A stretch of 20,000 nt of DNA from an uncultured virus (IMG/VR IMGVR_UViG_3300004686_000002) (Duplodnaviria; Heunggongvirae; Uroviricota; Caudoviricetes). Positions 1-13,465 of this stretch are shown piece after piece. The stretch covers positions 111,626-131,625 of IMG/VR virus record IMGVR_UViG_3300004686_000002; one strand, 5' to 3'. Position numbers and translations under genes: made by a program. Below the pieces are notes generated by a model that worked only from the letters and a program-made list of their open reading frames with translations, was not told the origin of the DNA and made no database searches. The stretch's first letter is position 1. Every line of letters starts with the position of its first letter.

Positions 1-1
1 C

Positions 2-118
2 AGGCTCTTGAACGACGAGAAATATGTGATCAGCTACTACAAGGATAATTGGACTCCTCAAGGAAGTTATAGAGTCTTTGTGATTTACGGAAAAAAGAAG
101 GAAACCTCTAATGAATAA
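2..118 (+). CDS. 3' end of hypothetical protein (partial, runs off window start)
   Basis: Open frame from base 2 (RLLNDEKYVISYYKDNWTPQGSYRVFVIYGKKKETSNE*), stop TAA at 116-118 overlapping the next start. Confidence 0.6.
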   Translation, partial: RLLNDEKYVISYYKDNWTPQGSYRVFVIYGKKKETSNE

Positions 119-845
119 TAACAACCAAACAAAAATACCTCTATCTCCAGAAGAGGCTTATCTTGCTTCTAAGCTTTTTGGCAGAAGCTTGTTCAGTGCT
201 ATACAACTTGCAAAAGAACAGGAAGAGGCCACCCGCAGAATGGAAGGTCTTGGTGGAGGAGACACCTTGAGAATTCCTATTCCTGTAAATACTTTGCACA
301 AAACCAGTGAAGAGGGCGAGGCTTCTCCTGGGTTGATAGGAAGAGCAATCAGATTCAACAGAAACCCAATTCGCTCTGTGTTTGGTGGTGAGGCAGGCTT
401 TCACGAAGCCAGGAGAGAATACTTTCAGCAACAGAAGATGCAGATACAGCGTGAACTTCAGGATGCGCAAAAAGAATATCTCCAAACACTTCAAAAGATT
501 AAGCAGGGTGAATTAGAAACCCCTAACGTGGATGCATTCTGCAATGGATTGGCTGCAGAAGCGACCATCAGTGAAATTCTTCCTAAAACTGCAGGTAATA
601 CTGCAGAAGATGTAGAAATAAGCGATCACAGCCTAAAGAGACTTCTTGGTAAAGGCCTAGGTATCTTGAAAAAGCCTGTTGACCCTGTTATTGATTTAGG
701 TGCCACAGGATTAATAGGTACAGGCGCAGGTAGTGCTTATCTTACTTATGTTATTAAGAAGAAGCTTAGAGAGAAAAATCACGCTGAGGATTATATCTCT
801 AACATTCCTACCAGAGTAGAATTAGAACCTTACAACATAGGATGA
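111..845 (+). CDS. Hypothetical phage protein, possibly virion-associated (coiled coil plus Gly-rich hydrophobic C-terminal helix)
   Basis: 244-aa ORF, overlaps both neighbours (ATGA junction with next gene); no recognisable catalytic motif. Confidence 0.7.
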   Translation: MNNNNQTKIPLSPEEAYLASKLFGRSLFSAIQLAKEQEEATRRMEGLGGGDTLRIPIPVNTLHKTSEEGEASPGLIGRAIRFNRNPIRSVFGGEAGFHEARREYFQQQKMQIQRELQDAQKEYLQTLQKIKQGELETPNVDAFCNGLAAEATISEILPKTAGNTAEDVEISDHSLKRLLGKGLGILKKPVDPVIDLGATGLIGTGAGSAYLTYVIKKKLREKNHAEDYISNIPTRVELEPYNIG

Positions 846-1330
846 AAATAGACTGGAGCGAATTTGAAAGAGGATTTTCCGATATGGAAAAAGAGGGAGG
901 TTTTTTAACCAACCTCTTAACCTCCCGTGTGAGTAAAATATTAGATAATATTGCACCCAGACCTAATCCAGGAATAGCTCCACTGCTTCCACAAATGCAG
1001 GGAAAGTTGAATTTAAACTTAGGCCCTGAAAAAACCATTTTTAATACTCCAGCTAACGAAGTGCACAGCATAGGCTCTCCTGTTAAAGGGCAAGAAAAGT
1101 TAGCAGGACTCATAGATCCTCATGTGCTTAGAAGTGTATTAACAGCAAAAGCCGTTAAAGGTGCGGTAAATACCATTGCGGGTCCAGACGCACCAGAAAC
1201 TTCTGAGGTACCTGAAAAAAAGGTTATTTTAGAAACTAAATATCCTGAAATGAAAAAACTTCTTGAAGATGAGAAGACTAAAGCATATCTTGAATCCTTA
1301 CTCACAGAGGATTTGAACAATGCAAGCTAA
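842..1330 (+). CDS. Hypothetical phage protein
   Basis: 162-aa ORF translationally coupled to upstream gene (ATGA at 842-845). Confidence 0.7.
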   Translation: MKIDWSEFERGFSDMEKEGGFLTNLLTSRVSKILDNIAPRPNPGIAPLLPQMQGKLNLNLGPEKTIFNTPANEVHSIGSPVKGQEKLAGLIDPHVLRSVLTAKAVKGAVNTIAGPDAPETSEVPEKKVILETKYPEMKKLLEDEKTKAYLESLLTEDLNNAS

Positions 1331-1532
1331 ACAAATCTATATTCCGTCTTTAAAAATAAAAGGAACATACCTAGAAGAAATCGGCGGAGAAAAAGAAAAA
1401 GTGACCTACCCTGGTAAGCCTATAGAGGTAGAGTTAACAGCAGAAGATTTCTTATCAGAAGAAGATTATCACAGTGCCTGGATAATAATAACAAGAGCAG
1501 TGCAAAAAAAGCTTTCAAATGGAGTTTCCTAA
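1320..1532 (+). CDS. Small hypothetical protein directly upstream of RpoB fragment 1
   Basis: 70-aa ORF filling the gap, with short overlaps at both ends. Confidence 0.6.
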   Translation: MQAKQIYIPSLKIKGTYLEEIGGEKEKVTYPGKPIEVELTAEDFLSEEDYHSAWIIITRAVQKKLSNGVS

Positions 1533-2172
1533 AAATACCAGAGATTTTTTTGATCCGCATGCACTGAATAAGCTTATTCAGAAACATGTGCTAGAAGGTT
1601 TTAAGTCTAAGTTAGGGCAGATAGAAACAAACGACCACAAGTTAGAGGTAGAGAACATAGAGATACACCCAAAGCCATTCTCTATAGAGGACCAGAAAAA
1701 GGCTATCTTAGAAAAGCGTGATCTTACTTACCCAATAAAGGGAGATGTGCACTTGGTGGATAAACGCACAGGTCAGCGGGTAGAATCCAAACATATTACC
1801 ATTGCGAATATTCCTTTTGTCACAGACAGGAATACGGTTGTGTATAACGGCAGTGAGTATGAGCCTATTCATCAGCAGAGATTGCTTCCTGGGGTTTACT
1901 CCAGGATTCGCCAAAGCGGAGAAGCAGAAGCTCACATCAATCCGGCCCCTAGAACAGGAATGGGCGGAAGAATATTATTTTATCCAGACAAACAACTTTT
2001 TGTTTTGATGCTTCAGAACACGCAAATAAAGCTTTATGGTGTGATGAGAGATCTCGGCGTGTCTGATAGCCAAATGCAAGCCGCCTGGGGAAATGAGATT
2101 TATTTAGCCAATAAGAAAATGTACACAGGCGACGAAATAGACAAGTTGTACAATAAAATATTTTTAAGTTAA
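1519..2172 (+). CDS. rpoB: Phage RNA polymerase beta subunit, N-terminal fragment (protrusion and lobe)
   Basis: [34 protein letters not shown] matches RpoB [46 protein letters not shown] matches ILRALxYTTEQI; only 217 aa. Confidence 0.85.
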   Translation: [217 protein letters not shown]

Positions 2173-2175
2173 AAT

Positions 2176-2208
2176 TTGCAACCCTACCGTGTCAGAGGTA
2201 TATATTAA
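2176..2208 (+). promoter_or_regulatory. Putative promoter TTGCAA ... GTATATATTAA
   Basis: TTGCAA at 2176-2181, 17 nt spacer, TATATA(TT); the 11-mer GTATATATTAA recurs at 3199-3209. Confidence 0.5.
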
Positions 2209-2226
2209 GAGGAGGTGAACACACAC

Positions 2227-2448
2227 ATGAATAAAAACGCATACGAAATCAGATTAGACATTCTTATGGACGCTCACAGGTATTGTACTGAATTATTTCA
2301 GCACAAAGCCTCTGCGTTTATGGCGGCAGCTGAGAAAGACAATAAGGTTGTTTCACCAGAAGCAATTGAAAAGCTATATCCATCAAAAAAGGAAATCATC
2401 AGCACTGCAGAAATGTTTTATGAGTTTGTGGGAGGCAGCCACAAATAA
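2227..2448 (+). CDS. Conserved small phage hypothetical protein (YEIRLDIL ... YPSxxEIIxxAExFYEFV type)
   Basis: AGGAGG at 2209-2214 upstream of ATG 2227; motif pattern resembles a small-protein family I recall from large myophages. Confidence 0.7.
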   Translation: MNKNAYEIRLDILMDAHRYCTELFQHKASAFMAAAEKDNKVVSPEAIEKLYPSKKEIISTAEMFYEFVGGSHK

Positions 2449-2481
2449 AATATTGCATACTAACAAACAATAAGTAATAAT

Positions 2482-2565
2482 AACTATCAGCAATGGAGAA
2501 ACCTTATGTTTCTCTGGATTAGTAATCCTAGTCTGTTGCAAGGGCATAATCCATTGTTGATAGTT
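2482..2565 (+). ncRNA. Candidate structured RNA or 5' leader (multibranch fold)
   Basis: 16-bp closing stem AACTATCAGCAATGGA (2482-2497) / TCCATTGTTGATAGTT (2550-2565) with one G-U, enclosing GAAAC-CTTAT-GTTTC and TGGATTAG-TAATC-CTAGTCTG hairpins. Confidence 0.45.
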
Positions 2566-2594
2566 CAACCAAAAACAAACAACAATTAAAAATT

Positions 2595-3110
2595 ATGGCT
2601 ACCACATATTCAGTTCGTAAAAACGCTTCTGGCGTTACAGCCGACAATCAGATCGGTGGACTCATCACTTCTCGCTACGAGAAGGCTAGCATGGCCTTCG
2701 GCACTATTCCTGCCGGAAGCTACAATTGCGGCGACACCATCAGCTTTGATGATGTTGACAGCCGTTATATCGTTGAGGCTCACGTCACGGCCCACCTCGG
2801 TGGCGGTGTGATCGCTCTTGATGTTGTTCCTGGAACGGATCTCACCGCAGGTCCTCTCGCGCTCAACATTGGTACAGGAGCCACGGGCGCTGGTACAGGC
2901 GGAACGGGAACTTATTCCAACAACAACCCTGGTCCTTTGCTCAGCTATGTAATTTATTACATCCGCGGTAACGGCACCCAAGGTTCAGCCGGATCCACGA
3001 ATCCTAACGTTGGTGGTTCTGCTGGTGATCTCCTTCAGGTCACCGTGTCCGCTAGTGCAATTGTTACCAAGGATTCTGTTTCTAACACAGAAACAGGCCC
3101 TACTGTCTAA
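2595..3110 (+). CDS. Gly/Thr/Ser-rich probable virion structural protein (decoration or fibre-like)
   Basis: 171 aa, small-residue beta-rich composition, visibly higher GC than flanks, own leader and strong terminator. Confidence 0.6.
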   Translation: MATTYSVRKNASGVTADNQIGGLITSRYEKASMAFGTIPAGSYNCGDTISFDDVDSRYIVEAHVTAHLGGGVIALDVVPGTDLTAGPLALNIGTGATGAGTGGTGTYSNNNPGPLLSYVIYYIRGNGTQGSAGSTNPNVGGSAGDLLQVTVSASAIVTKDSVSNTETGPTV

Positions 3111-3125
3111 TCTTTAGACCAGTTA

Positions 3126-3168
3126 AAAAAGAATGGGGGTGTGGAGAAATCCACACCCTTATTTTTTT
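3126..3168 (+). terminator. Rho-independent terminator
   Basis: GGGTGTGGA-GAAA-TCCACACCC hairpin followed by TTATTTTTTT, A-run upstream. Confidence 0.85.
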
Positions 3169-3179
3169 ATAAAAAGCAC

Positions 3180-3209
3180 TTGCGCGTAGCTAGAGATCGT
3201 ATATATTAA
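3180..3209 (+). promoter_or_regulatory. Putative promoter TTGCGC ... GTATATATTAA
   Basis: Directly after the terminator; same 11-mer as 2198-2208. Confidence 0.5.
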
Positions 3210-3244
3210 TTCTCGTCAGTAACACTTAAACAAATAATAAACAC

Positions 3245-3391
3245 ATGGAAGAATCAAAAGAATCCCAAGTATTTCGTCTTGTTCAAGAGCTTGAACAAAC
3301 CAGGAAAAATAAAAAAGCCGAGATGCAGGCTTATAACGAAGACATCAAAAGAATCAACGCCGAGATAAAAGAATTATTAACCAAGGAATAA
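3245..3391 (+). CDS. Small coiled-coil protein (48 aa, absent from ORF track)
   Basis: MEESKESQVFRLVQELEQTRKNKKAEMQAYNEDIKRINAEIKELLTKE*, ends 1 nt before the next ATG. Confidence 0.65.
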   Translation: MEESKESQVFRLVQELEQTRKNKKAEMQAYNEDIKRINAEIKELLTKE

Positions 3392-3392
3392 T

Positions 3393-3674
3393 ATGAGCGC
3401 ACAAGATGAACAAAGAGGCACAGTAGAACTTCCCGCAGTGGTAAGTACAGAAACAGACAAGCATATCTCTATGCTCCTGATAGAGGACGGTCTAGCTCAA
3501 GTTGAAGATCAGCTCAATGGGCTAGAATCAGGAATTGCCGAAGTCACAGAAGCAAATAAGCAGCTAACAGAAAGAATGAATATGCTACAAAGCCGAAAGA
3601 TCGCAGCTACGGCCCAAAAAAACCTATTATTCGAATTGCAGAAAAAGATTACTGAGTTGTCGGCTGCTCAGTAA
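3393..3674 (+). CDS. Hypothetical coiled-coil protein
   Basis: 93-aa ORF with heptad pattern; AAGGA upstream. Confidence 0.7.
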   Translation: MSAQDEQRGTVELPAVVSTETDKHISMLLIEDGLAQVEDQLNGLESGIAEVTEANKQLTERMNMLQSRKIAATAQKNLLFELQKKITELSAAQ

Positions 3675-3682
3675 ATAACTAT

Positions 3683-4036
3683 ATGTCAGAGGCTCCTAAT
3701 AATTTTATTATATTGTTAGGAGCCTCTGCATGGTTGGCTTATATTCTATTGGTTTGGTTTAGAACAAATGCGTTTGCCGAGTATATAAATCTTTTCAAGC
3801 TTTCTAAATATTTTAAAGTAGGCAAATATTATGAATTGGTAGAAAACGGCTATCCGGATGGATACGTTCAATTTTTAAAGGAATATTATCACGACTCTTT
3901 CCTGGTTCGTTTAGTTACATGTCCTATTTGTTTTGGATTTTGGTTAGGTTTAGATATTGCTTTGGTATTTAATATTAACTTTTTAGTTATACCTATAGGC
4001 TTGTTTTTATATGGCTGTTTAAATAGAATTATTTGA
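3683..4036 (+). CDS. Membrane protein with CxxC motif, DUF1360-like
   Basis: Hydrophobic helices and LVTCPICFGFW motif. Confidence 0.6.
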   Translation: MSEAPNNFIILLGASAWLAYILLVWFRTNAFAEYINLFKLSKYFKVGKYYELVENGYPDGYVQFLKEYYHDSFLVRLVTCPICFGFWLGLDIALVFNINFLVIPIGLFLYGCLNRII

Positions 4037-4037
4037 T

Positions 4038-5615
4038 ATGGCCGGATTAGAAATAAATACATCTAGTGTAATACTAGGCTCACCAGATACTTTAGGAGTT
4101 CCTCAATACACGGCGCAATATCAGCCAGGATATTTTAGTATTTCTAATGAGTCTGTTGTAGTTACTCAGTTAGCATTAACAAATGCATTAGACTTAGTTG
4201 TAAACAGCCCAAGTTTATTAAGTGTTGGTCAGATTGTAGAGGCTTATGGCATTCAGCCCAATACAACAATAACTCAGATCTATGGAAATACCATAACTCT
4301 TAGCGCGCATCTCACACATAATATTTCTAGTGGCACTAGTCTTATATTGGGCACAATAACCCCGCCAGATAACTGCGCATTACCCGCACTTAGCGCTCCT
4401 CTATTAGACTTAGGCAGCCCTATCACACCTATGGATAGGGCCTGCAGTTTTGCATTTCCAAACGTAAATCTTGTAACGCCTGTTTATAACGCTCCGAATA
4501 TTGCTGCTCTCGCCTGTCAAACAGTTCAGGTAAAAGGAAACATAGTGCAGACTGGGGCAGCAGACGGGCAAATAACTGTTACTAGCTCTGGCAACGCCCC
4601 TGATTGCGGTATTTTATTGGGAGGAAATATTCACGTTACTGCGTGTGAAAATTTTAAAATTGATTCTAATGTAAAGCTCACAGGCAGTGCGCAAGGAAGT
4701 TTAACATTCGGAAGTGTTTCTAGCGCTCCTGACTGCGGAGCCCAGCTTACAGGGAATATATTCGTTCCTCAGGCTTGCGAGGTTATTTTTGTCGAAAAAG
4801 GAAATATTAATTTTCCCCCTAATATGGCGGGATCTGCGTTTAATATTTACAACAAACAGTCACTCACGGCAACAACAGGGCCTACAGGCGGAGGCGGTGG
4901 TCCTCCATGCACAATAAGCTATGATTTAGACCTTCATGTTAATGCCTGTGAAGCAATTAAAATAAATCCTATATTCAACCCTCCCTCGGCTTTCTCGGGA
5001 TCCACTTTCCTGGTTAAACCAAAAGCCATAACAGGTCCAACGAGCTCCACAGGCCCAACAGCTTCTATATCTTCTGCTAGTTACGCTCAACAACAAGAAG
5101 AAAATTGTTCGGTGGATTTAAAACTGGATCTTGTGACTAACTTTTGTGAAGCTTACAAAGTATTTGGAACAGTTACCACATCAGGGATGGCACAAGGAAA
5201 CGTAAAACTGTCCTCCTCTGGGAATAAAGGGCAATGCCAGCTTATATTAGATGGTAATATAGAGGTACCAGAAATTCTATTTGATAGCGACGTACAGACT
5301 CACGGGTTACCTTGGAGTGTTGATGTTCTGCGAGTACCAAGCGCGGCAGGTGCTACGCATACTCCTCCTCACTATCAACTAAAAGCAGACTTTAAGCTAG
5401 GAGATAAGTTGTCATCTGTTCTTAGTGGCTGTTGGTTACCTATATCTGTTTGCGTTCTCGGAGTAACAAGGGATATTTATGTTTGGGTGGTTGGATACCG
5501 CGGAGATAAACGATGCCCAGGCCCCACTTGCTGCTTACTGCCATCTAATCCAAACGACGGTCGTAGTCCTATCGAAATATATAGTGGCTGGTATAACGGG
5601 TATGCTCCTGCGTAA
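4038..5615 (+). CDS. Large Cys-repeat protein, probable virion (tail/baseplate/fibre) component
   Basis: 525 aa; internal repeats PDCGILLGGNIHVTACE / PDCGAQLTGNIFVPQACE / PPCTISYDLDLHVNACE / NCSVDLKLDLVTNFCE. Confidence 0.6.
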   Translation: MAGLEINTSSVILGSPDTLGVPQYTAQYQPGYFSISNESVVVTQLALTNALDLVVNSPSLLSVGQIVEAYGIQPNTTITQIYGNTITLSAHLTHNISSGTSLILGTITPPDNCALPALSAPLLDLGSPITPMDRACSFAFPNVNLVTPVYNAPNIAALACQTVQVKGNIVQTGAADGQITVTSSGNAPDCGILLGGNIHVTACENFKIDSNVKLTGSAQGSLTFGSVSSAPDCGAQLTGNIFVPQACEVIFVEKGNINFPPNMAGSAFNIYNKQSLTATTGPTGGGGGPPCTISYDLDLHVNACEAIKINPIFNPPSAFSGSTFLVKPKAITGPTSSTGPTASISSASYAQQQEENCSVDLKLDLVTNFCEAYKVFGTVTTSGMAQGNVKLSSSGNKGQCQLILDGNIEVPEILFDSDVQTHGLPWSVDVLRVPSAAGATHTPPHYQLKADFKLGDKLSSVLSGCWLPISVCVLGVTRDIYVWVVGYRGDKRCPGPTCCLLPSNPNDGRSPIEIYSGWYNGYAPA

Positions 5616-5619
5616 ATTT

Positions 5620-6312
5620 TCAGCTTTCTGGAACCTCAACAACAGAGTTCAAGAAAGTCTGATGATCTATCCAAATTTTTTTACCAGAAGAGTCCTCTAC
5701 TAATCTATAGAGCTTACCGTCTTCTCCTTTTCTGCAGTTTTTAACAAAAAAGTTTACCACGCCTATTGTTTCGGCTTCTACTGTTTGAATAGGGTCCATT
5801 AGTCCAAACTGACTCTCATTAACACTTCTGGAGCTATCAGGAATGCTCTCTGTGCTTCCTATGCCGCCCTCACCCATCTTGCTGACTTTGTGGGCAAGCA
5901 TATATTGCTCCATAGGATTTACACCCTCGATGTTTTGGCTCAGGGCGTTACCCACAAAAACACTCTTTATTTGAGGAGTAAAAAAGCCGCTATGCAGCCA
6001 GGATAGATTTCTTTTTTGTCTGAGCTTCATCTTTGCTTTCATTTGTATCTTACCCGCATCGTGCTCTATGTGCTCTTTGACATAATCCTCCGCACCTAAA
6101 AATTTTGAATACGCCAGGTTATCTCTATCATCGGGATGTACTTCTCTGCTATAAACCTTTAAAAGCTTACTCGTTGTCTGCAGTAATACCGCGGGATTTA
6201 TGTGGTTAACAGACATACCAAGGGTTTTCCCCATAACACCCACGTCTAGTCGAATGTTTCCAAAGTATTCTTTTATTTTTTGTGCCTTCTCGGCCTTAGT
6301 CATCGTATTCAT
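5620..6312 (-). CDS. rpoB: Phage RNA polymerase beta subunit, middle fragment (fork / rifampicin-binding region)
   Basis: DDRDNL matches [35 protein letters not shown] matches [54 protein letters not shown] matches [25 protein letters not shown]. Confidence 0.9.
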   Translation of the reverse strand: [230 protein letters not shown]

Positions 6313-6427
6313 CTGAATTATTATATCTTGTAAATTAAAACCTACAATCAGAATTGCTAAGTAAAGATATTCTTTGACGAACGTAAAATATGTATTAATA
6401 TATTATTAGTGTGCTAAATAAAACTAT

Positions 6428-6616
6428 ATGAATTTTGAATTCAACTACGACCCTGAGTCAGAGGAGATATCTATCACTTATGACAATTCGATAACCCTCA
6501 GGGCATACCAACAAAACGGTAAAATAATTTTTGTTAACTTTGATAGAGTAGACGACCCGGACATAGAAGACCTTTTAAAAAACGTTTGCAAAAACACATA
6601 CAGTCTGCTTACTTAG
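6428..6616 (+). CDS. Small acidic hypothetical protein
   Basis: 62-aa ORF after AT-rich divergent intergenic region with TTGACG at 6374. Confidence 0.6.
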   Translation: MNFEFNYDPESEEISITYDNSITLRAYQQNGKIIFVNFDRVDDPDIEDLLKNVCKNTYSLLT

Positions 6617-6620
6617 TCTA

Positions 6621-7064
6621 ATGGCTAAAAGCACTAACACACAGAATAGATTATCTTGGGATGAGTATGGTATGCTTCTCGCATACGCGGCAGCCCTCAG
6701 ATCAGAAGATCCATACAAAAAGGTAGGAGCAGCTGCCCTGCGCAATGATTATAGTGTTGCAGGTACTGGTTATAATGGAGTACCGAAAGGGGTGGATATT
6801 TCCTGGGAAGATAGAGAAGAGCGCAGAAAATATGTGTGTCACGCAGAATTGAATTGTTTAAGATACACAAAGCCTTCAGAAGTACATACTATCTACACCA
6901 CACTGTCCCCTTGCTCAGACTGTATTAAAACAATAGGAGCATTCGGTATTAAAAGAATTTTCTTCTCAGAAATTTACGACAGAGATAAATCTTGCTTTGA
7001 AATTGCTGATGTATTTGGTATAGCTATACAACACTTTCCATTTAACCCACAAATAATTTTTTAA
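6621..7064 (+). CDS. dCMP deaminase (deoxycytidylate deaminase)
   Basis: RSEDPYKKVGA, TGYNG, HAELN and PCSDC zinc-deaminase motifs. Confidence 0.92.
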   Translation: MAKSTNTQNRLSWDEYGMLLAYAAALRSEDPYKKVGAAALRNDYSVAGTGYNGVPKGVDISWEDREERRKYVCHAELNCLRYTKPSEVHTIYTTLSPCSDCIKTIGAFGIKRIFFSEIYDRDKSCFEIADVFGIAIQHFPFNPQIIF

Positions 7065-7070
7065 ATCTTG

Positions 7071-7099
7071 TTGACAATACTATGAAGCCGAAAGATAGT
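7071..7099 (+). promoter_or_regulatory. Sigma70-like promoter TTGACA-N17-GATAGT
   Basis: Perfect -35 with 17-nt spacing; overlaps the start of the 7082 ORF. Confidence 0.45.
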
Positions 7100-7252
7100 G
7101 ATGATGAGTTTTATAACCCCTCTCACAAAAAAGAAAATGATGGGGGGAATAAAAAAAGTGAGTTTGTTAAAAAAATAAGAAAATATCAAAAATCTATAGA
7201 ACCTGACGAATATGACGAATACTACGAACACAGAGACGACACAAGAGACTGA
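7082..7252 (+). CDS. Small charged hypothetical protein (56 aa, absent from ORF track)
   Basis: MKPKDSDDEFYNPSHKKEND...YDEYYEHRDDTRD*; fills gap but overlaps the next ORF by 41 nt. Confidence 0.4.
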   Translation: MKPKDSDDEFYNPSHKKENDGGNKKSEFVKKIRKYQKSIEPDEYDEYYEHRDDTRD

Positions 7253-7439
7253 TACTTGTAAAAATTGCAAGTACTGGTTTAAAGTTCAAAATGAAGCAGC
7301 TGAGACAGAAGGTGCTTTAATTTTTGGAAGGTGCAAAAGAAATCCTCCCCTTTTTGTACAAAAGGATGATACTACTTATACAGGATTCCCCATGATTGTG
7401 GACCACGAATGGTGCGGAGAATTTATCCCTAAGCAATAA
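7212..7439 (+). CDS. Small Cys-rich (putative Zn-binding) phage protein
   Basis: CKNCKYW ... GRCKRNPP ... FP ... WCGEF pattern. Confidence 0.75.
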   Translation: MTNTTNTETTQETDTCKNCKYWFKVQNEAAETEGALIFGRCKRNPPLFVQKDDTTYTGFPMIVDHEWCGEFIPKQ

Positions 7440-7447
7440 ACACATAT

Positions 7448-7993
7448 ATGAAGAAACCAACAAATAACAAACCTAGAGTAAAAGCAAAAAACCAAAAGCT
7501 GGTATCTCGTGCAGTGAAAGAAGCGGGATTCAAAAATATTAAAGAGGCCAAGGAAGTGATGGCAAAGCAGAAAGAGCAGATTTCTGCTGATACCGCGGTA
7601 GAGCAAGCAAATCTGGAATTGATCATTCCCGAAGGAGCGAACTATCAATTTATCAAGAATGAAGTCGAAAACCTCAAGAATGAAGGAGCTCCTTTTGCGT
7701 ATATCACAGAGCGTGTTAAGTATCTTGTTTGGAAGACCAGAGCCTCAGAGATTGAAGCAGAAAAGAACAAAACCCAAAAATGCATTTGCGGACGTAATCA
7801 ATGCCGCGAGGGGCAAGAAAATAATTATATTGAACACGTTGGAAGTCCCAATGAAATCACAAAGGCAACCACCGGAAGAATTCCAATTAATATTGGAGAT
7901 GCCTTTATCATTTCTAATCAGGAAGTAGACCAAAATCTTATTCAGGAGTTTAAGGAGATCTTTGGCCCTATCTTTAAAGTCCTGAAAGTTTGA
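7448..7993 (+). CDS. Hypothetical protein
   Basis: 181-aa ORF, basic N-terminus, CICGRNQC motif. Confidence 0.7.
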   Translation: MKKPTNNKPRVKAKNQKLVSRAVKEAGFKNIKEAKEVMAKQKEQISADTAVEQANLELIIPEGANYQFIKNEVENLKNEGAPFAYITERVKYLVWKTRASEIEAEKNKTQKCICGRNQCREGQENNYIEHVGSPNEITKATTGRIPINIGDAFIISNQEVDQNLIQEFKEIFGPIFKVLKV

Positions 7994-8008
7994 ATAAACA
8001 GTCACGAT

Positions 8009-9227: not shown

Positions 9228-9311
9228 GCCTGAGTCCCTTAGTGGCCAATAGGATCGGTTTTGTAAACCGACGCGCAAGCTTCGTGAGTTCGAATCTCAC
9301 CTCAGGCTCCA
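9228..9311 (+). tRNA. trnT: tRNA-Thr (anticodon TGT) with long variable arm, CCA encoded
   Basis: Acceptor GCCTGAG/CTCAGGC, D stem CCT/AGG, anticodon arm TCGGT-TTTGTAA-ACCGA, 12-nt variable region, T arm GTGAG-TTCGAAT-CTCAC, discriminator T, CCA. Confidence 0.9.
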
Positions 9312-9320
9312 ATTTTTAAT

Positions 9321-10091
9321 ATGCGACTATTCGATTGCTTTCTATATAACGGGGAAGAAAAAATGTTAACCTTTAGGTTGCATGAGTTAAACGAAGTAGT
9401 GGATTACTTTGTAATTGTAGAGGCAGACACTGGGTTTTCTGGAAGCAAAAAGCCAATTAGGTTCAATATAGATAACTTTAAGTCTTTTGAAGAAAAAATA
9501 ATTTATAGGCCTTACACGTTCCCTCCTACCTCTAACGCCTGGGAAAATGAAGCAAAGCAGCGAACATATTTAGCTAGCGGTTTAAATCAATTAACACCAA
9601 ATAAAGCAGACTTGGTAATGCTGTCTGATGTTGATGAAATACCTGACACAACAGTATTAAAGCAGATTAAATCTTCAGGCATGGTAGGAGCTTTGGCCTT
9701 TTATCATAATTTTTATTATTATAATTATAAATGTAGAAATATTAATAAATGGGCAGGTACAGTCATAACCAGCATAAATACCTTCAATACCCATTTTAAT
9801 AATAACTTTGAGATTGTTAGAAATAGCAGATGGTCTATATCTAAAATAGGACAACCTGGAGATTACAAGTCAGGAGGTTGGCATTTCTCGTATTTTGGAG
9901 ATGAGAATTATATAATAGATAAAATAAAGAACTTCTCACATCAGGAATACAACAACTCTAAATATACAGATCCAGAAACAATTAAAAAGTTAATCAAAGA
10001 AGGAAAAGATTTATTTTTTAGAGACGAGCAGAAATACGAGTTTATTGAGAACGGCGATTATTTGCCGAAAAATATAAGCTTGCTGGATTAA
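9321..10091 (+). CDS. Glycosyltransferase family 17 (MGAT3-like beta-1,4-GlcNAc transferase)
   Basis: FDCFLYNGE..L..RLHELNEVVDYFVIVEA..FSG, SDVDEIP, GGWHFSYFG, KIKNFSHQE. Confidence 0.88.
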   Translation: MRLFDCFLYNGEEKMLTFRLHELNEVVDYFVIVEADTGFSGSKKPIRFNIDNFKSFEEKIIYRPYTFPPTSNAWENEAKQRTYLASGLNQLTPNKADLVMLSDVDEIPDTTVLKQIKSSGMVGALAFYHNFYYYNYKCRNINKWAGTVITSINTFNTHFNNNFEIVRNSRWSISKIGQPGDYKSGGWHFSYFGDENYIIDKIKNFSHQEYNNSKYTDPETIKKLIKEGKDLFFRDEQKYEFIENGDYLPKNISLLD

Positions 10092-12437: not shown

Positions 12438-12848
12438 TTAAATCCAGGAAGCATATGTCATTCCTTTTGGTTTAGGTTCTAGTCGATAGTCTATAAATAA
12501 CTCATCACCCACAGTTATATTCTTTTGAGCCACCACCAATCTCTCCTCTAGCTTCCATAAGCAGTTAGGATTTCGACTATGATTTATATATGAAAACTTA
12601 CTCCAGCTATCGCTAGTTATGCAGTTTTCGCTGTCTATCATAACATATAGATTTTTACGCTTTTTATCTTCGCAAAGATCGGAGTACTTGAGGTGATACC
12701 AGCTAGCTGGAAACAGATTATAGTTTACAATAATCTCACCTATCTCAAAGTCTTTCGCCGCGAATAAGCCGTAGCCTTCTGTGAATGACGCTTTTACTTT
12801 TGTGTTTGGAGCATCATCGTTATTTATAATTATGTCTAATTTTAACAT
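12438..12848 (-). CDS. SET-domain protein (putative lysine methyltransferase)
   Basis: GYGLFAAKDFEIGEII, YINHSRNPNC and GDELFIDY motifs; no Cys-rich post-SET. Confidence 0.88.
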   Translation of the reverse strand: MLKLDIIINNDDAPNTKVKASFTEGYGLFAAKDFEIGEIIVNYNLFPASWYHLKYSDLCEDKKRKNLYVMIDSENCITSDSWSKFSYINHSRNPNCLWKLEERLVVAQKNITVGDELFIDYRLEPKPKGMTYASWI

Positions 12849-12850
12849 GA

Positions 12851-13465
12851 TTAAAGCGTGGGTTGATTAGATAATATTTTAGCCAATACCGTCATCTTAT
12901 GCTCACCGTTGCCGGGCACATGCACCACAGCTGAAGAAGCGCAGAAGTCAGATTCGTAAGCATTGAAAAGTGACTTTGGTGCAACACCTATCCTGTTTTG
13001 CAAATCCATAAAATTTTCTTTTTCTAGTTTCATAAACGCTGCTTGCTCCCACCAGCAGTGATCTATAAATTCTCTTTGCTCCCACATTGCATCTAGCAAT
13101 ATTTTATTTTCATTACAATTACGCCAAAGCATAACCCCACAATTAAATCCGTTATCATCTCTAGATAAAACTATATCTTTATTTTCATGAATAAAATCTA
13201 ATATTGATTTTTTAAAATTGTAAAAAACCGCATCTGCATCAATCCACATAACCCATTCACAAGGCAGTTCAAAAGCTTTTTTAATGCTTTTTATTTTATA
13301 CCAAGAGGGGGGCCTTTCCAAATTTTCTAAAATTTCTGTTTGAAATATTAAGTTGTGCTGTTCAGCATATCTTTTATTTCTTTCAAAAGTGAAATTCGAC
13401 ACCCACTGAAAATTTTTGGTGGTTAAGCTGCAAACTATTAACTTTATTTTTTCTTCAGTAGTCAT
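12851..13465 (-). CDS. Glycosyltransferase family 34 (GMA12/MNN10-like)
   Basis: NKRYAEQH, SWYKI, WVMWIDADA, FNCGVMLWRN, WWEQAA, VHVPG. Confidence 0.85.
   Translation of the reverse strand: MTTEEKIKLIVCSLTTKNFQWVSNFTFERNKRYAEQHNLIFQTEILENLERPPSWYKIKSIKKAFELPCEWVMWIDADAVFYNFKKSILDFIHENKDIVLSRDDNGFNCGVMLWRNCNENKILLDAMWEQREFIDHCWWEQAAFMKLEKENFMDLQNRIGVAPKSLFNAYESDFCASSAVVHVPGNGEHKMTVLAKILSNQPTL

Follow-up and report, generated by a model that had tools for sequence, protein, structure and literature searches.

We examined a 20,000-nucleotide stretch of DNA, hereafter the window, that forms the end of the IMG/VR viral record IMGVR_UViG_3300004686_000002 and in which a sequence-only reading had recognized two consecutive parts of RpoB, the beta subunit of multisubunit RNA polymerase (RNAP), facing each other on opposite strands. 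Both open reading frames (ORFs), here named b1 and b2, were found as described, convergent and each with its own start and stop codon, and six further ORFs lie between them. A third ORF, b3, located upstream of the window in the same record, carries the rest of beta. Beta is not encoded here as one continuous polypeptide; it is distributed over three ORFs that start and stop separately and occupy both strands, with b2 and b3 on the same strand ~11 kb apart and b1 between them on the opposite one. The positions of these and other features are collected in Table 1.

The assignment of b1 to the N-terminal region of RpoB, as claimed by the sequence-only reading, was borne out by sequence and structure comparisons. 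In a phmmer search against the chains of the PDB, b1 residues 51-204 aligned with residues ~55-225 of bacterial beta (best E 2.9e-7), and 45 of the 48 chains listed as matches were beta chains. An AlphaFold model of the protein reached a mean predicted local distance difference test score (pLDDT) of 85.6, and with this model Foldseek retrieved RNAP beta chains as well as an isolated beta1-beta2 domain structure from Mycobacterium tuberculosis (E 4e-11 to 2e-8). By these two routes the protrusion and lobe domains (Rpb2_1 and Rpb2_2) of beta were located in b1, where the protrusion (beta1) is represented by its N-terminal half and the lobe (beta2) by its first half. Among relatives, b1 is 39-100% identical. 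The ATG of b1 overlaps the end of an upstream ORF (1320-1532) by 14 nucleotides, placing the gene inside a co-directional block, and because of this overlap b1 is probably translated as a member of an operon.

The next block of RpoB is found in b2, again as had been claimed. This protein supplies the remaining halves of lobe and protrusion and further comprises a DDRD motif, the Rif-cluster/fork region (Rpb2_3) and a divergent ETPE-like motif. It matched the Pfam family RNA_pol_Rpb2_3 with 27.7 bits (cut-off 21; E 3.1e-6), and phmmer against PDB chains aligned residues 33-212 with residues 370-557 of Bacillus subtilis-type beta and residues 110-201 with residues 497-587 of Escherichia coli beta (best chain E 5.1e-7), with RNAP beta chains making up 48 of the 49 chains listed; Pfam and phmmer thus both locate the fork domain and the Rif-cluster region in b2. 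The DDxDxL motif that the sequence-only reading had named occurs as HPDDRDNL, and DDRD and GxGG are among the conserved columns. At the position where a TPE motif is usual the protein has QTVEAETIG, whereas the wider family reads RTPES. The end of b2 maps to E. coli beta residue ~616, in line with the predicted ~620.

The prediction that the catalytic part of the enzyme must be encoded elsewhere also held: when the whole record was searched with Rpb2_6, the hybrid-binding and double-psi-barrel domain of beta, a single match was obtained, in b3 (residues 96-459, E 3e-54, 185 bits). The same ORF carries Rpb1_1 at residues 655-725 and Rpb1_2 at 856-928, its residues 20-278 align with E. coli beta 648-905 and its residues 603-961 with B. 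subtilis beta' 149-504, and the aspartates and glycine of its DxDGD sequence (D906, D908, G909 and D910, a Mg-binding motif of the NADFDGD type within Rpb1_2) were invariant in 21 of 21 aligned sequences. Given these domains, chain matches and invariant aspartates, b3 is a fusion in which the C-terminal half of beta, with its catalytic domain, precedes the catalytic N-terminal half of beta'. The expected third piece of beta therefore exists in b3, though as part of a fusion and not as beta alone. Between the end of the beta homology and beta' residue ~149 there are only ~50 residues (b3 ~553-603), and the first ~150 residues of bacterial beta', which contain the zinc-binding clamp element, seem to be missing or unrecognizable. 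The remainder of beta' is a separate protein of 620 amino acids, residues 4-354 of which align with E. coli beta' 572-954 and residues 26-342 with residues 13-349 of chain 8syi_Z, so that it starts within ~20 residues of the start of cyanobacterial RpoC2. A sigma-like gene lies further away in the record. Searches for an alpha homologue gave none in any of the three related near-complete or complete genomes, each of which has a single Rpb2_6 match. The large subunits amount to four polypeptides in total, the same number as in the non-virion enzyme of phiKZ; the claim that this RNAP is more fragmented than that of phiKZ is accordingly right as regards beta, which is in three genes, and wrong as regards the large subunits as a whole.

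Table 1. Position of the RNAP genes and of other features in the window and in the source record (G000:C1, coordinates of the record; all others, coordinates of the window)
Feature	Position	Strand	Length	Remarks
Source record IMGVR_UViG_3300004686_000002			131,625 bp	IMG/VR viral record; CheckV completeness 67%
Window	G000:C1:111626-131625		20 kb	End of the record
b1, RNAP beta piece 1	1519..2172	+	217 aa	ATG start
b2, RNAP beta piece 2	5620..6312	-	230 aa	ATG start
b3, beta C-half and beta' N-half	G000:C1:103241-106228	-	995 aa	6.9 kb upstream of b1
beta' C-terminal half	G000:C1:100230-102092	-	620 aa	Rpb1_3 and Rpb1_5
Sigma-like gene	G000:C1:68883-69521		212 aa	Sigma70_r3
Divergent intergenic region	6313..6427	.	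115 nt	Upstream of b2; TATAAT hexamer
Intervening ORF	2215-2448	+	77 aa	
Intervening ORF	2595-3110	+	171 aa	
Intervening ORF	3245-3391	+	48 aa	
Intervening ORF	3393-3674	+	93 aa	
Intervening ORF	3683-4036	+	117 aa	
Intervening ORF	4038-5615	+	525 aa	
tRNA-Thr (anticodon TGT)	9228-9311	+		Found by both Rfam and ARAGORN

We then compared the three pieces with proteins of related phages. Among deposited phages, tblastn identified four cultured relatives with all parts, namely Salmonella phage Arash and Vibrio phages D69, D181 and D148, and in Arash gp206 (1525 amino acids) and D69 VPHD69_0261 (1527 amino acids) the counterparts of b1, b2 and b3 lie in one annotated coding sequence (CDS). An exhaustive HMMER search with b2 returned 1034 cluster representatives at E <= 1e-3, 819 of them at E <= 1e-10; architectures were read among the best 150 of the 1034, and most of these carry b1, b2 and b3 in this order in one protein of 1450-2900 amino acids. 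The basic single-chain form measures ~1450-1530 amino acids, and the excess length of the others consists of inteins (Intein_splicing and LAGLIDADG_3) or of inserted InPase and 2H-SAK domains. When aligned with P0048, a single-chain protein of 1451 amino acids that is free of inserts, b1 residues 3-215 correspond to residues 2-212, b2 residues 2-228 to 218-444 and b3 residues 7-994 to 455-1448, and the lengths of the pieces (217+230+995) add up to 1442. Judged by this alignment, nothing is missing and nothing has been added at the break points. The three pieces are homologous to the long subunit in collinear order, and this, together with the separate gene for the C-terminal half of beta', is the pattern of the Arash/D69 type; the single ORF typical of its long subunit is replaced by the three-way split, both here and in all relatives of the clade.

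This Arash/D69-type family looks unusually rich in inteins. Single-chain relatives (P0017, P0030, P0068, P0086 and many others) contain between one and four large inserts in b3, at positions that recur (~139, 324, 362, 462, 773 and 911); where checked, these inserts were Intein_splicing and LAGLIDADG_3. In addition, the stand-alone b2 homologues P0003, P0006 and P0007 (46-70% identity) have an insert of 140-340 amino acids directly after GGIG, GGIK or GGIP, in the Rif-cluster region, which begins with Cys and ends with GN followed by Ser, an intein-like signature; a Pfam intein domain was not found in these three proteins.

Such an abundance of inteins raises the question of whether one continuous beta chain is restored from the pieces at the RNA or protein level, through trans-splicing introns or split inteins. 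Split inteins do join the products of opposite-strand genes in the case of cyanobacterial DnaE, and both the Intein_splicing and LAGLIDADG_3 inserts of the fused relatives and the Cys...GN|S insert of the close stand-alone b2 relatives could be read in favor of this. There is, however, no room for intein halves: the unaligned residues amount to ~2 (b1) and 1 (b2) at the b1|b2 junction and to ~2 and 6 at the b2|b3 junction, and since the pieces tile P0048 without extra residues, split inteins are excluded. Furthermore, b1 and b2 gave no intein match in Pfam, each piece has its own ATG and stop codon, an Rfam search of the window found no group I or group II intron and only the tRNA, and no joints were seen in DNA contigs, though DNA is silent on RNA. 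The tiling, the separate starts and stops and the lack of an Rfam intron make rejoining of any kind very unlikely.

To place the split form among its relatives, we relied on a quick maximum-likelihood analysis of the b2 region, which gave a tree of 128 rows, rooted at its midpoint and supported by the Shimodaira-Hasegawa-like approximate likelihood ratio test (SH-aLRT) only; it left out 22 of the 150 representatives, in which b2 is interrupted or partial, and included as additional rows the window, L022, L039, Arash and D69. The b1b2b3 single-ORF form accounts for 91 of the 128 rows. The stand-alone b2 of the window belongs to a monophyletic clade of five rows (SH-aLRT 100) that sits on a long stem among these single-ORF rows, and because of this placement the split is judged to be derived. 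The arrangement accordingly goes back to fission of a fused gene and not to an ancestral fragmentation.

Other split forms were also present among the representatives, and the ends of these proteins cluster at the two junctions and not at random positions. Six b1b2 proteins that form one well-supported clade (P0019, P0022, P0024, P0038, P0054 and P0067) end 3-22 residues past the end of b2, and at least nine b2b3 proteins from other clades (P0017, P0025, P0029, P0032, P0037, P0089, P0100, P0111 and P0148) start 17-38 residues before b2. In the fused relative P0023 the Rpb2_2 lobe match spans the b1|b2 junction, and the first break therefore falls inside the lobe. At this very junction an InPase domain (PF18823) is inserted in P0019, P0022 and P0024, and a 2H-SAK domain (PF22547, a 2H phosphoesterase) in P0030 and P0068; an inorganic pyrophosphatase built into the lobe of an RNA polymerase is curious in itself. 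Residues ~250-383 of E. coli beta (~130 residues) have no counterpart here at the b1|b2 break, which probably corresponds to the site of the lineage-specific lobe insertion of E. coli. The second break, located at E. coli beta ~616-629, separates the fork domain from the hybrid-binding domain, and in P0086 b3 is interrupted by an intein close to its start. The simplest reason why the breaks were tolerated is that both are surface-permissive points, since relatives tolerate inserted domains or inteins at or near both of them.

We next assessed how widely the three-gene layout occurs. IMG/VR contained 22 loci with b2 homologues (69-100% identity), and 14 of them also contain b1, oriented opposite to b2 at a distance of 3.5-7.2 kb; the remaining eight loci end within 5.7 kb past b2. 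One locus was obtained in a locus search from P0004 and none in a locus search from P0008. In five of six related records that were searched as a whole, b3 is a single open frame of 989-1012 amino acids without b1 or b2 (998 amino acids in G001 and G002), and in G003 the frame is cut by the record ends. The order b2(+), b1(-), b3(+) occurs in G004, G005 and the distant G006 (b1 39% and b3 55% identical to those of the phage studied here), of which the window phage is the mirror image; G004 and G005 are 100% complete according to CheckV, and G005 has terminal repeats; the genomes with this layout include one of 204 kb with terminal repeats. The arrangement of b2, inverted b1 and b3 thus recurs in every relative that could be checked. 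Around b1 and b2 the gene order was conserved in 11 of 11 mapped loci, in all of which b2 is the lone opposite-strand gene within a co-directional block that holds b1 and a dCMP deaminase gene.

This recurrence bears on whether the scattering of the pieces could stem from misassembly or from a chimeric contig, the true genome having one gene. The record is indeed a metagenomic contig of limited completeness (CheckV 67%), yet contigs assembled independently from many samples show the same layout, and the pieces start and stop at homologous ends. Moreover, the local junctions (window 786-1802 and 4279-6290) are spanned, with 0 differences and no joints, by contigs from other sequencing runs, and an artefact is exceedingly improbable.

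A different objection would be that b1 and b2 are decaying remnants and that the phage uses the RNAP of its host, or b3 with the C-terminal half of beta' alone. The absence of a Pfam match for b1, the divergent ETPE-like motif of b2 and the scattering of the pieces could be taken as signs of decay. Both ORFs are, however, intact and of constant length in relatives down to 39-54% identity (b2 in 22 of 22 loci, one of them cut at the locus end, and b1 in 14 of 14 reachable loci), and DDRD and GxGG are conserved. When b1 and b2 of the window were compared with those of four relatives, pN (the proportion of nonsynonymous differences) was 0.06-0.30 and pS (the synonymous proportion) 0.79-0.94; synonymous sites were saturated, and for this reason we give only pN and pS and no dN/dS ratio. 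These values indicate that b1 and b2 are under strong purifying selection. In addition, b3 alone would lack the protrusion, lobe and fork, and would miss contacts to downstream DNA and to the RNA-DNA hybrid that, to our knowledge, all known multisubunit RNAPs make. Decay is therefore highly improbable. What the sequence-only reading had named as grounds for giving it up was looked for and not found: beta and beta' fragments do exist elsewhere in the record, RpoB matches were obtained by both hidden Markov model (HMM) and phmmer searches, and an intact full-length rpoB is absent both from this record and from three relatives with near-complete or complete genomes, each of which has one Rpb2_6 and one b1 match.

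Taken together, the recurring layout, the intact and conserved pieces, a pN far below pS and the bridging contigs exclude misassembly and pseudogene decay for practical purposes, and, since the layout recurs in relatives and the pieces are under purifying selection, the three-gene layout is an old, derived double gene fission, neither decay nor misassembly. We consider it likely that these genes encode one RNAP of the Arash/D69 type whose long gene was broken twice, into b1, b2 and b3, and reshuffled, and whose pieces assemble in trans. According to this explanation, an ancestral long gene coding for the whole of beta and the Mg-binding N-terminal half of beta' would have broken at two points, and the pieces would then have been reshuffled such that b2 and b3 remained on one strand, ~11 kb apart, with b1 inverted between them. 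Each piece would be translated on its own, and the three, together with the C-terminal half of beta' of the ~600-residue type, would assemble non-covalently into an active enzyme that a sigma-like factor of the phage would direct.

Several points weigh against this explanation. Assembly in trans is itself something that we infer, and no RNA sequencing run holding window 1400-6400 was found, which is silent on expression. The sequence similarity of b1 to beta is modest (E ~1e-7), and b1 has no Pfam or PHROG match. The structure model of b2 is poor (pLDDT 65, with residues 123-186 below 50), and a Foldseek search with it returned nothing at E <= 1e-3, the best match being an RNAP beta chain at 4.8e-3. 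The divergence of the ETPE-like motif (QTVEA vs RTPES) could mean that the function of that loop is altered or relaxed. As for the direction of change, the tree is a quick, midpoint-rooted one of a single 230-residue region, and some of the apparent split forms among the representatives may be truncated by contig ends or gene calls. Co-folding of b1, b3 (residues 1-545) and b2 gave scores of 0.89, 0.90 and 0.89, compared with 0.80 for a control in which b3 was replaced and 0.00 for two controls in which b2 was replaced, and speaks neither for nor against binding.

The geometry of the genes requires that b1 and b2 be transcribed separately. Within a long plus-strand block b2 is the sole minus-strand gene, and its stop codon is 4 nucleotides from that of the convergent ORF of 525 amino acids. 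None of the six intervening ORFs gave a significant Pfam or PHROG family, and none showed any sign of RNAP parts; for the 525-residue ORF, no usable lead was obtained from the ESM Atlas. Five of the six have homologues in the same order in relatives, with varying length and content, the 48-residue ORF being below the size cut-off of that comparison.

The divergent intergenic region preceding b2 must hold the promoter of this gene, for which the TATAAT hexamer is a candidate and a lead only. The hexamer ends 7 nucleotides 5' of the b2 ATG, and an alignment of 11 upstream regions (L012-L039) revealed that TAnnAT or TAnTAT is kept at the same spacing in most relatives. No Shine-Dalgarno-like sequence was found between the hexamer and the b2 start codon (within window 6313-6330). 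Because the conserved TAnnAT is 7 nucleotides from the ATG, the putative b2 message may be leaderless. A generic sigma-70 promoter scan of window 1-7500 returned 13 sites vs 17.5 expected, no excess over chance, and the count of terminator-like sites (8 vs 6.4 expected) was uninformative. One terminator-like hairpin with a T run lies in the coding region of b2 itself (window 5985-5999, minus strand) in the sense direction, and is probably a chance occurrence. Inverted repeats flanking b2, which would be a sign of site-specific inversion, were not found in window 1-8000, where there are just short AT-rich pairs.

These observations also bear on a regulatory view of the fission, by which the pieces would sit in different transcription units such that the RNAP is active only when all are on, or would form sub-assemblies with distinct roles. 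The three pieces do occupy three conserved transcription contexts, with b1 in a long nucleotide-metabolism block, b2 as a lone antisense gene and b3 beside virion genes together with the C-terminal half of beta', and the TAnnAT sequence 7 nucleotides before the b2 ATG is conserved as well. Conservation of gene order is, however, equally expected from simple inheritance, the promoter scan was at chance level, and no RNA runs with the window stretch were found. We regard a regulatory role as unlikely. Also quite unlikely, in our estimate, is the more specific idea that a non-neutral fission would gate completion of the polymerase via three timed units (e.g. late, for packaging), with b2, the smallest piece and the carrier of the Rif-pocket/fork region, as a limiting regulatory subunit, and with the break points reused independently in other clades because they separate modules that could be exchanged or dosed.

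Having arrived at a fissioned Arash/D69-type gene as the likely explanation, we compared the enzyme with known systems. The proteins of Arash (gp206, gp216 and sigma gp10) and D69 (VPHD69_0261) are homologous over the full length at 23-32% identity, with E values down to 2e-144 for b3. They share with the RNAP described here the order of beta and beta' segments, a separate gene for the C-terminal half of beta', a sigma-like factor and the presence of one RNAP set, and differ in that their long subunit is one CDS of 1525 or 1527 amino acids, compared with three genes here, out of order and on two strands. Mass spectrometry detected gp206, gp216 and sigma gp10 in Arash virions (PMC10585845), and the fused homologue is therefore a real, expressed enzyme; in the accessible text of the same paper, gp206 is annotated simply as beta, without mention of a beta' fusion (PMC10585845). 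Since the three Arash proteins are abundant in virions, the enzyme studied here may, by analogy, be packaged in the virion as well.

The sequence-only reading had instead drawn a comparison with the phiKZ and AR9 phages, for which split large subunits are established (PMC7598289, PMC7824862). Like their virion and non-virion RNAPs, the enzyme has beta-like and beta'-like subunits, without alpha and omega, in several scattered pieces. In phiKZ and AR9, beta' is divided beyond the catalytic barrel, close to the site used in cyanobacteria (PMC7598289), and judging from the matches of the 620-residue protein the split lies near that site here, too. In contrast to phiKZ and AR9, which have a virion and a non-virion set, there is one enzyme set here, beta and beta' are joined, the C-terminal half of the former to the N-terminal half of the latter, and the fragmentation demonstrably arose from a fused gene. 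The phage also has a Sigma70_r3 protein, unlike phiKZ-like phages, which lack a sigma factor (PMC7824862). Chains of phiKZ or AR9 were absent from the PDB matches listed for b1, b2, b3 and the 620-residue protein (for the latter two, the best 60), and no phiKZ-like phage appeared in the organism-name tally of the tblastn search or among the 30 of 39 matched records listed. In view of the lack of sequence matches, the single set and the sigma-like gene, the enzyme is assigned on sequence grounds to the Arash/D69 type and not to the phiKZ type.

The phage itself probably belongs with the multimeric-RNAP-encoding Caudovirales (mReC; Weinheimer and Aylward 2020, PMC7481178), which likewise are metagenomic tailed phages, some of them aquatic, with bacterial-like beta and beta' detected by cellular HMMs; the accessible part of that account describes neither a beta-beta' fusion nor a three-way split (PMC7481178). 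A literature search on gene fission, RNA polymerase, rpoB and phage returned no paper, and no description of the three-way split or of the fusion of beta with the N-terminal half of beta' in this lineage was found (subscription journals and supplements were outside the search).

Large subunits that are split into two adjacent, collinear genes are also found outside phages, namely gamma/beta' (RpoC1/RpoC2) of cyanobacteria and plastids and B'/B'' of archaea. As in those systems, an essential large subunit is made as separate polypeptides; unlike in them, the three genes for beta lie apart from one another and out of collinear order. Fragments of E. coli beta cut in the dispensable lobe region or at other surface sites reportedly still assemble into an active enzyme, as studied by Severinov and co-workers in the 1990s. 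Those fragments were engineered, whereas the split described here is natural and fixed. The three-way, reordered split is a new variation on the already known split RNAP subunits of phages, archaea and cyanobacteria.

What sets this case apart is that the known split RNAP subunits of archaea, cyanobacteria, plastids and phiKZ-like phages are ancient and the direction of change, fusion or fission, is debated, whereas here the direction is clear. In a family of phage polymerases that is large (at least 819 clusters at 50% identity, E <= 1e-10) and has received little study, and in which the default is beta fused to half of beta', one clade broke the fused chain twice, shuffled the pieces and kept them under selection. 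It offers a clear, datable double fission with reshuffling, in which the gene of an essential enzyme was fragmented without being lost. The two cut sites of beta, one inside the lobe, where relatives insert whole enzymes, and the other after the fork domain, are natural and tested by evolution; they bear on the question of how, in the absence of alpha, the large subunits fold and come together, and could be of use in designing split polymerases. The case also matters for annotation, as b1 obtains no family match in the clade and b3 would be labelled "beta" only.

As to its source, the genome belongs to a large tailed phage. Domain matches in the whole record include terminase, RecA-like, DnaB-like, primase-like, PolA-like and sigma70_r3 proteins, and those in the window ribonucleotide reductase, PhoH, dCMP deaminase and an ATP-dependent ligase. 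Among the related IMG/VR loci, the 182-kb record L011 contains a stretch of 100% identity, and the DNA runs that contain the window stretch are labelled freshwater metagenomes.

A few further genes of this phage are worth recording. Three genes of the window belong to families that are commoner in eukaryotes and their viruses, here found in a tailed phage: a glycosyltransferase of family 17 (window 9321-10091, plus strand, E 4e-31), a SET domain protein (12438-12848, minus strand, E 2e-14) and a galactosyltransferase of the GMA12/MNN10 type (12851-13465, minus strand, E 1e-14). Elsewhere in the record, a ThiF-family (E1-like) gene and a prokaryotic JAB gene lie side by side (G000:C1:10876-11911; L002:10876-11911), constituting a ubiquitin-like conjugation and deconjugation pair that adjoins an RNase H-like/exonuclease gene. 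Finally, an ORF of 879 amino acids (G000:C1:17271-19910; L002) has weak matches to the uracil-DNA-glycosylase superfamily and to DNA_pol_A, the latter below the Pfam cut-off.

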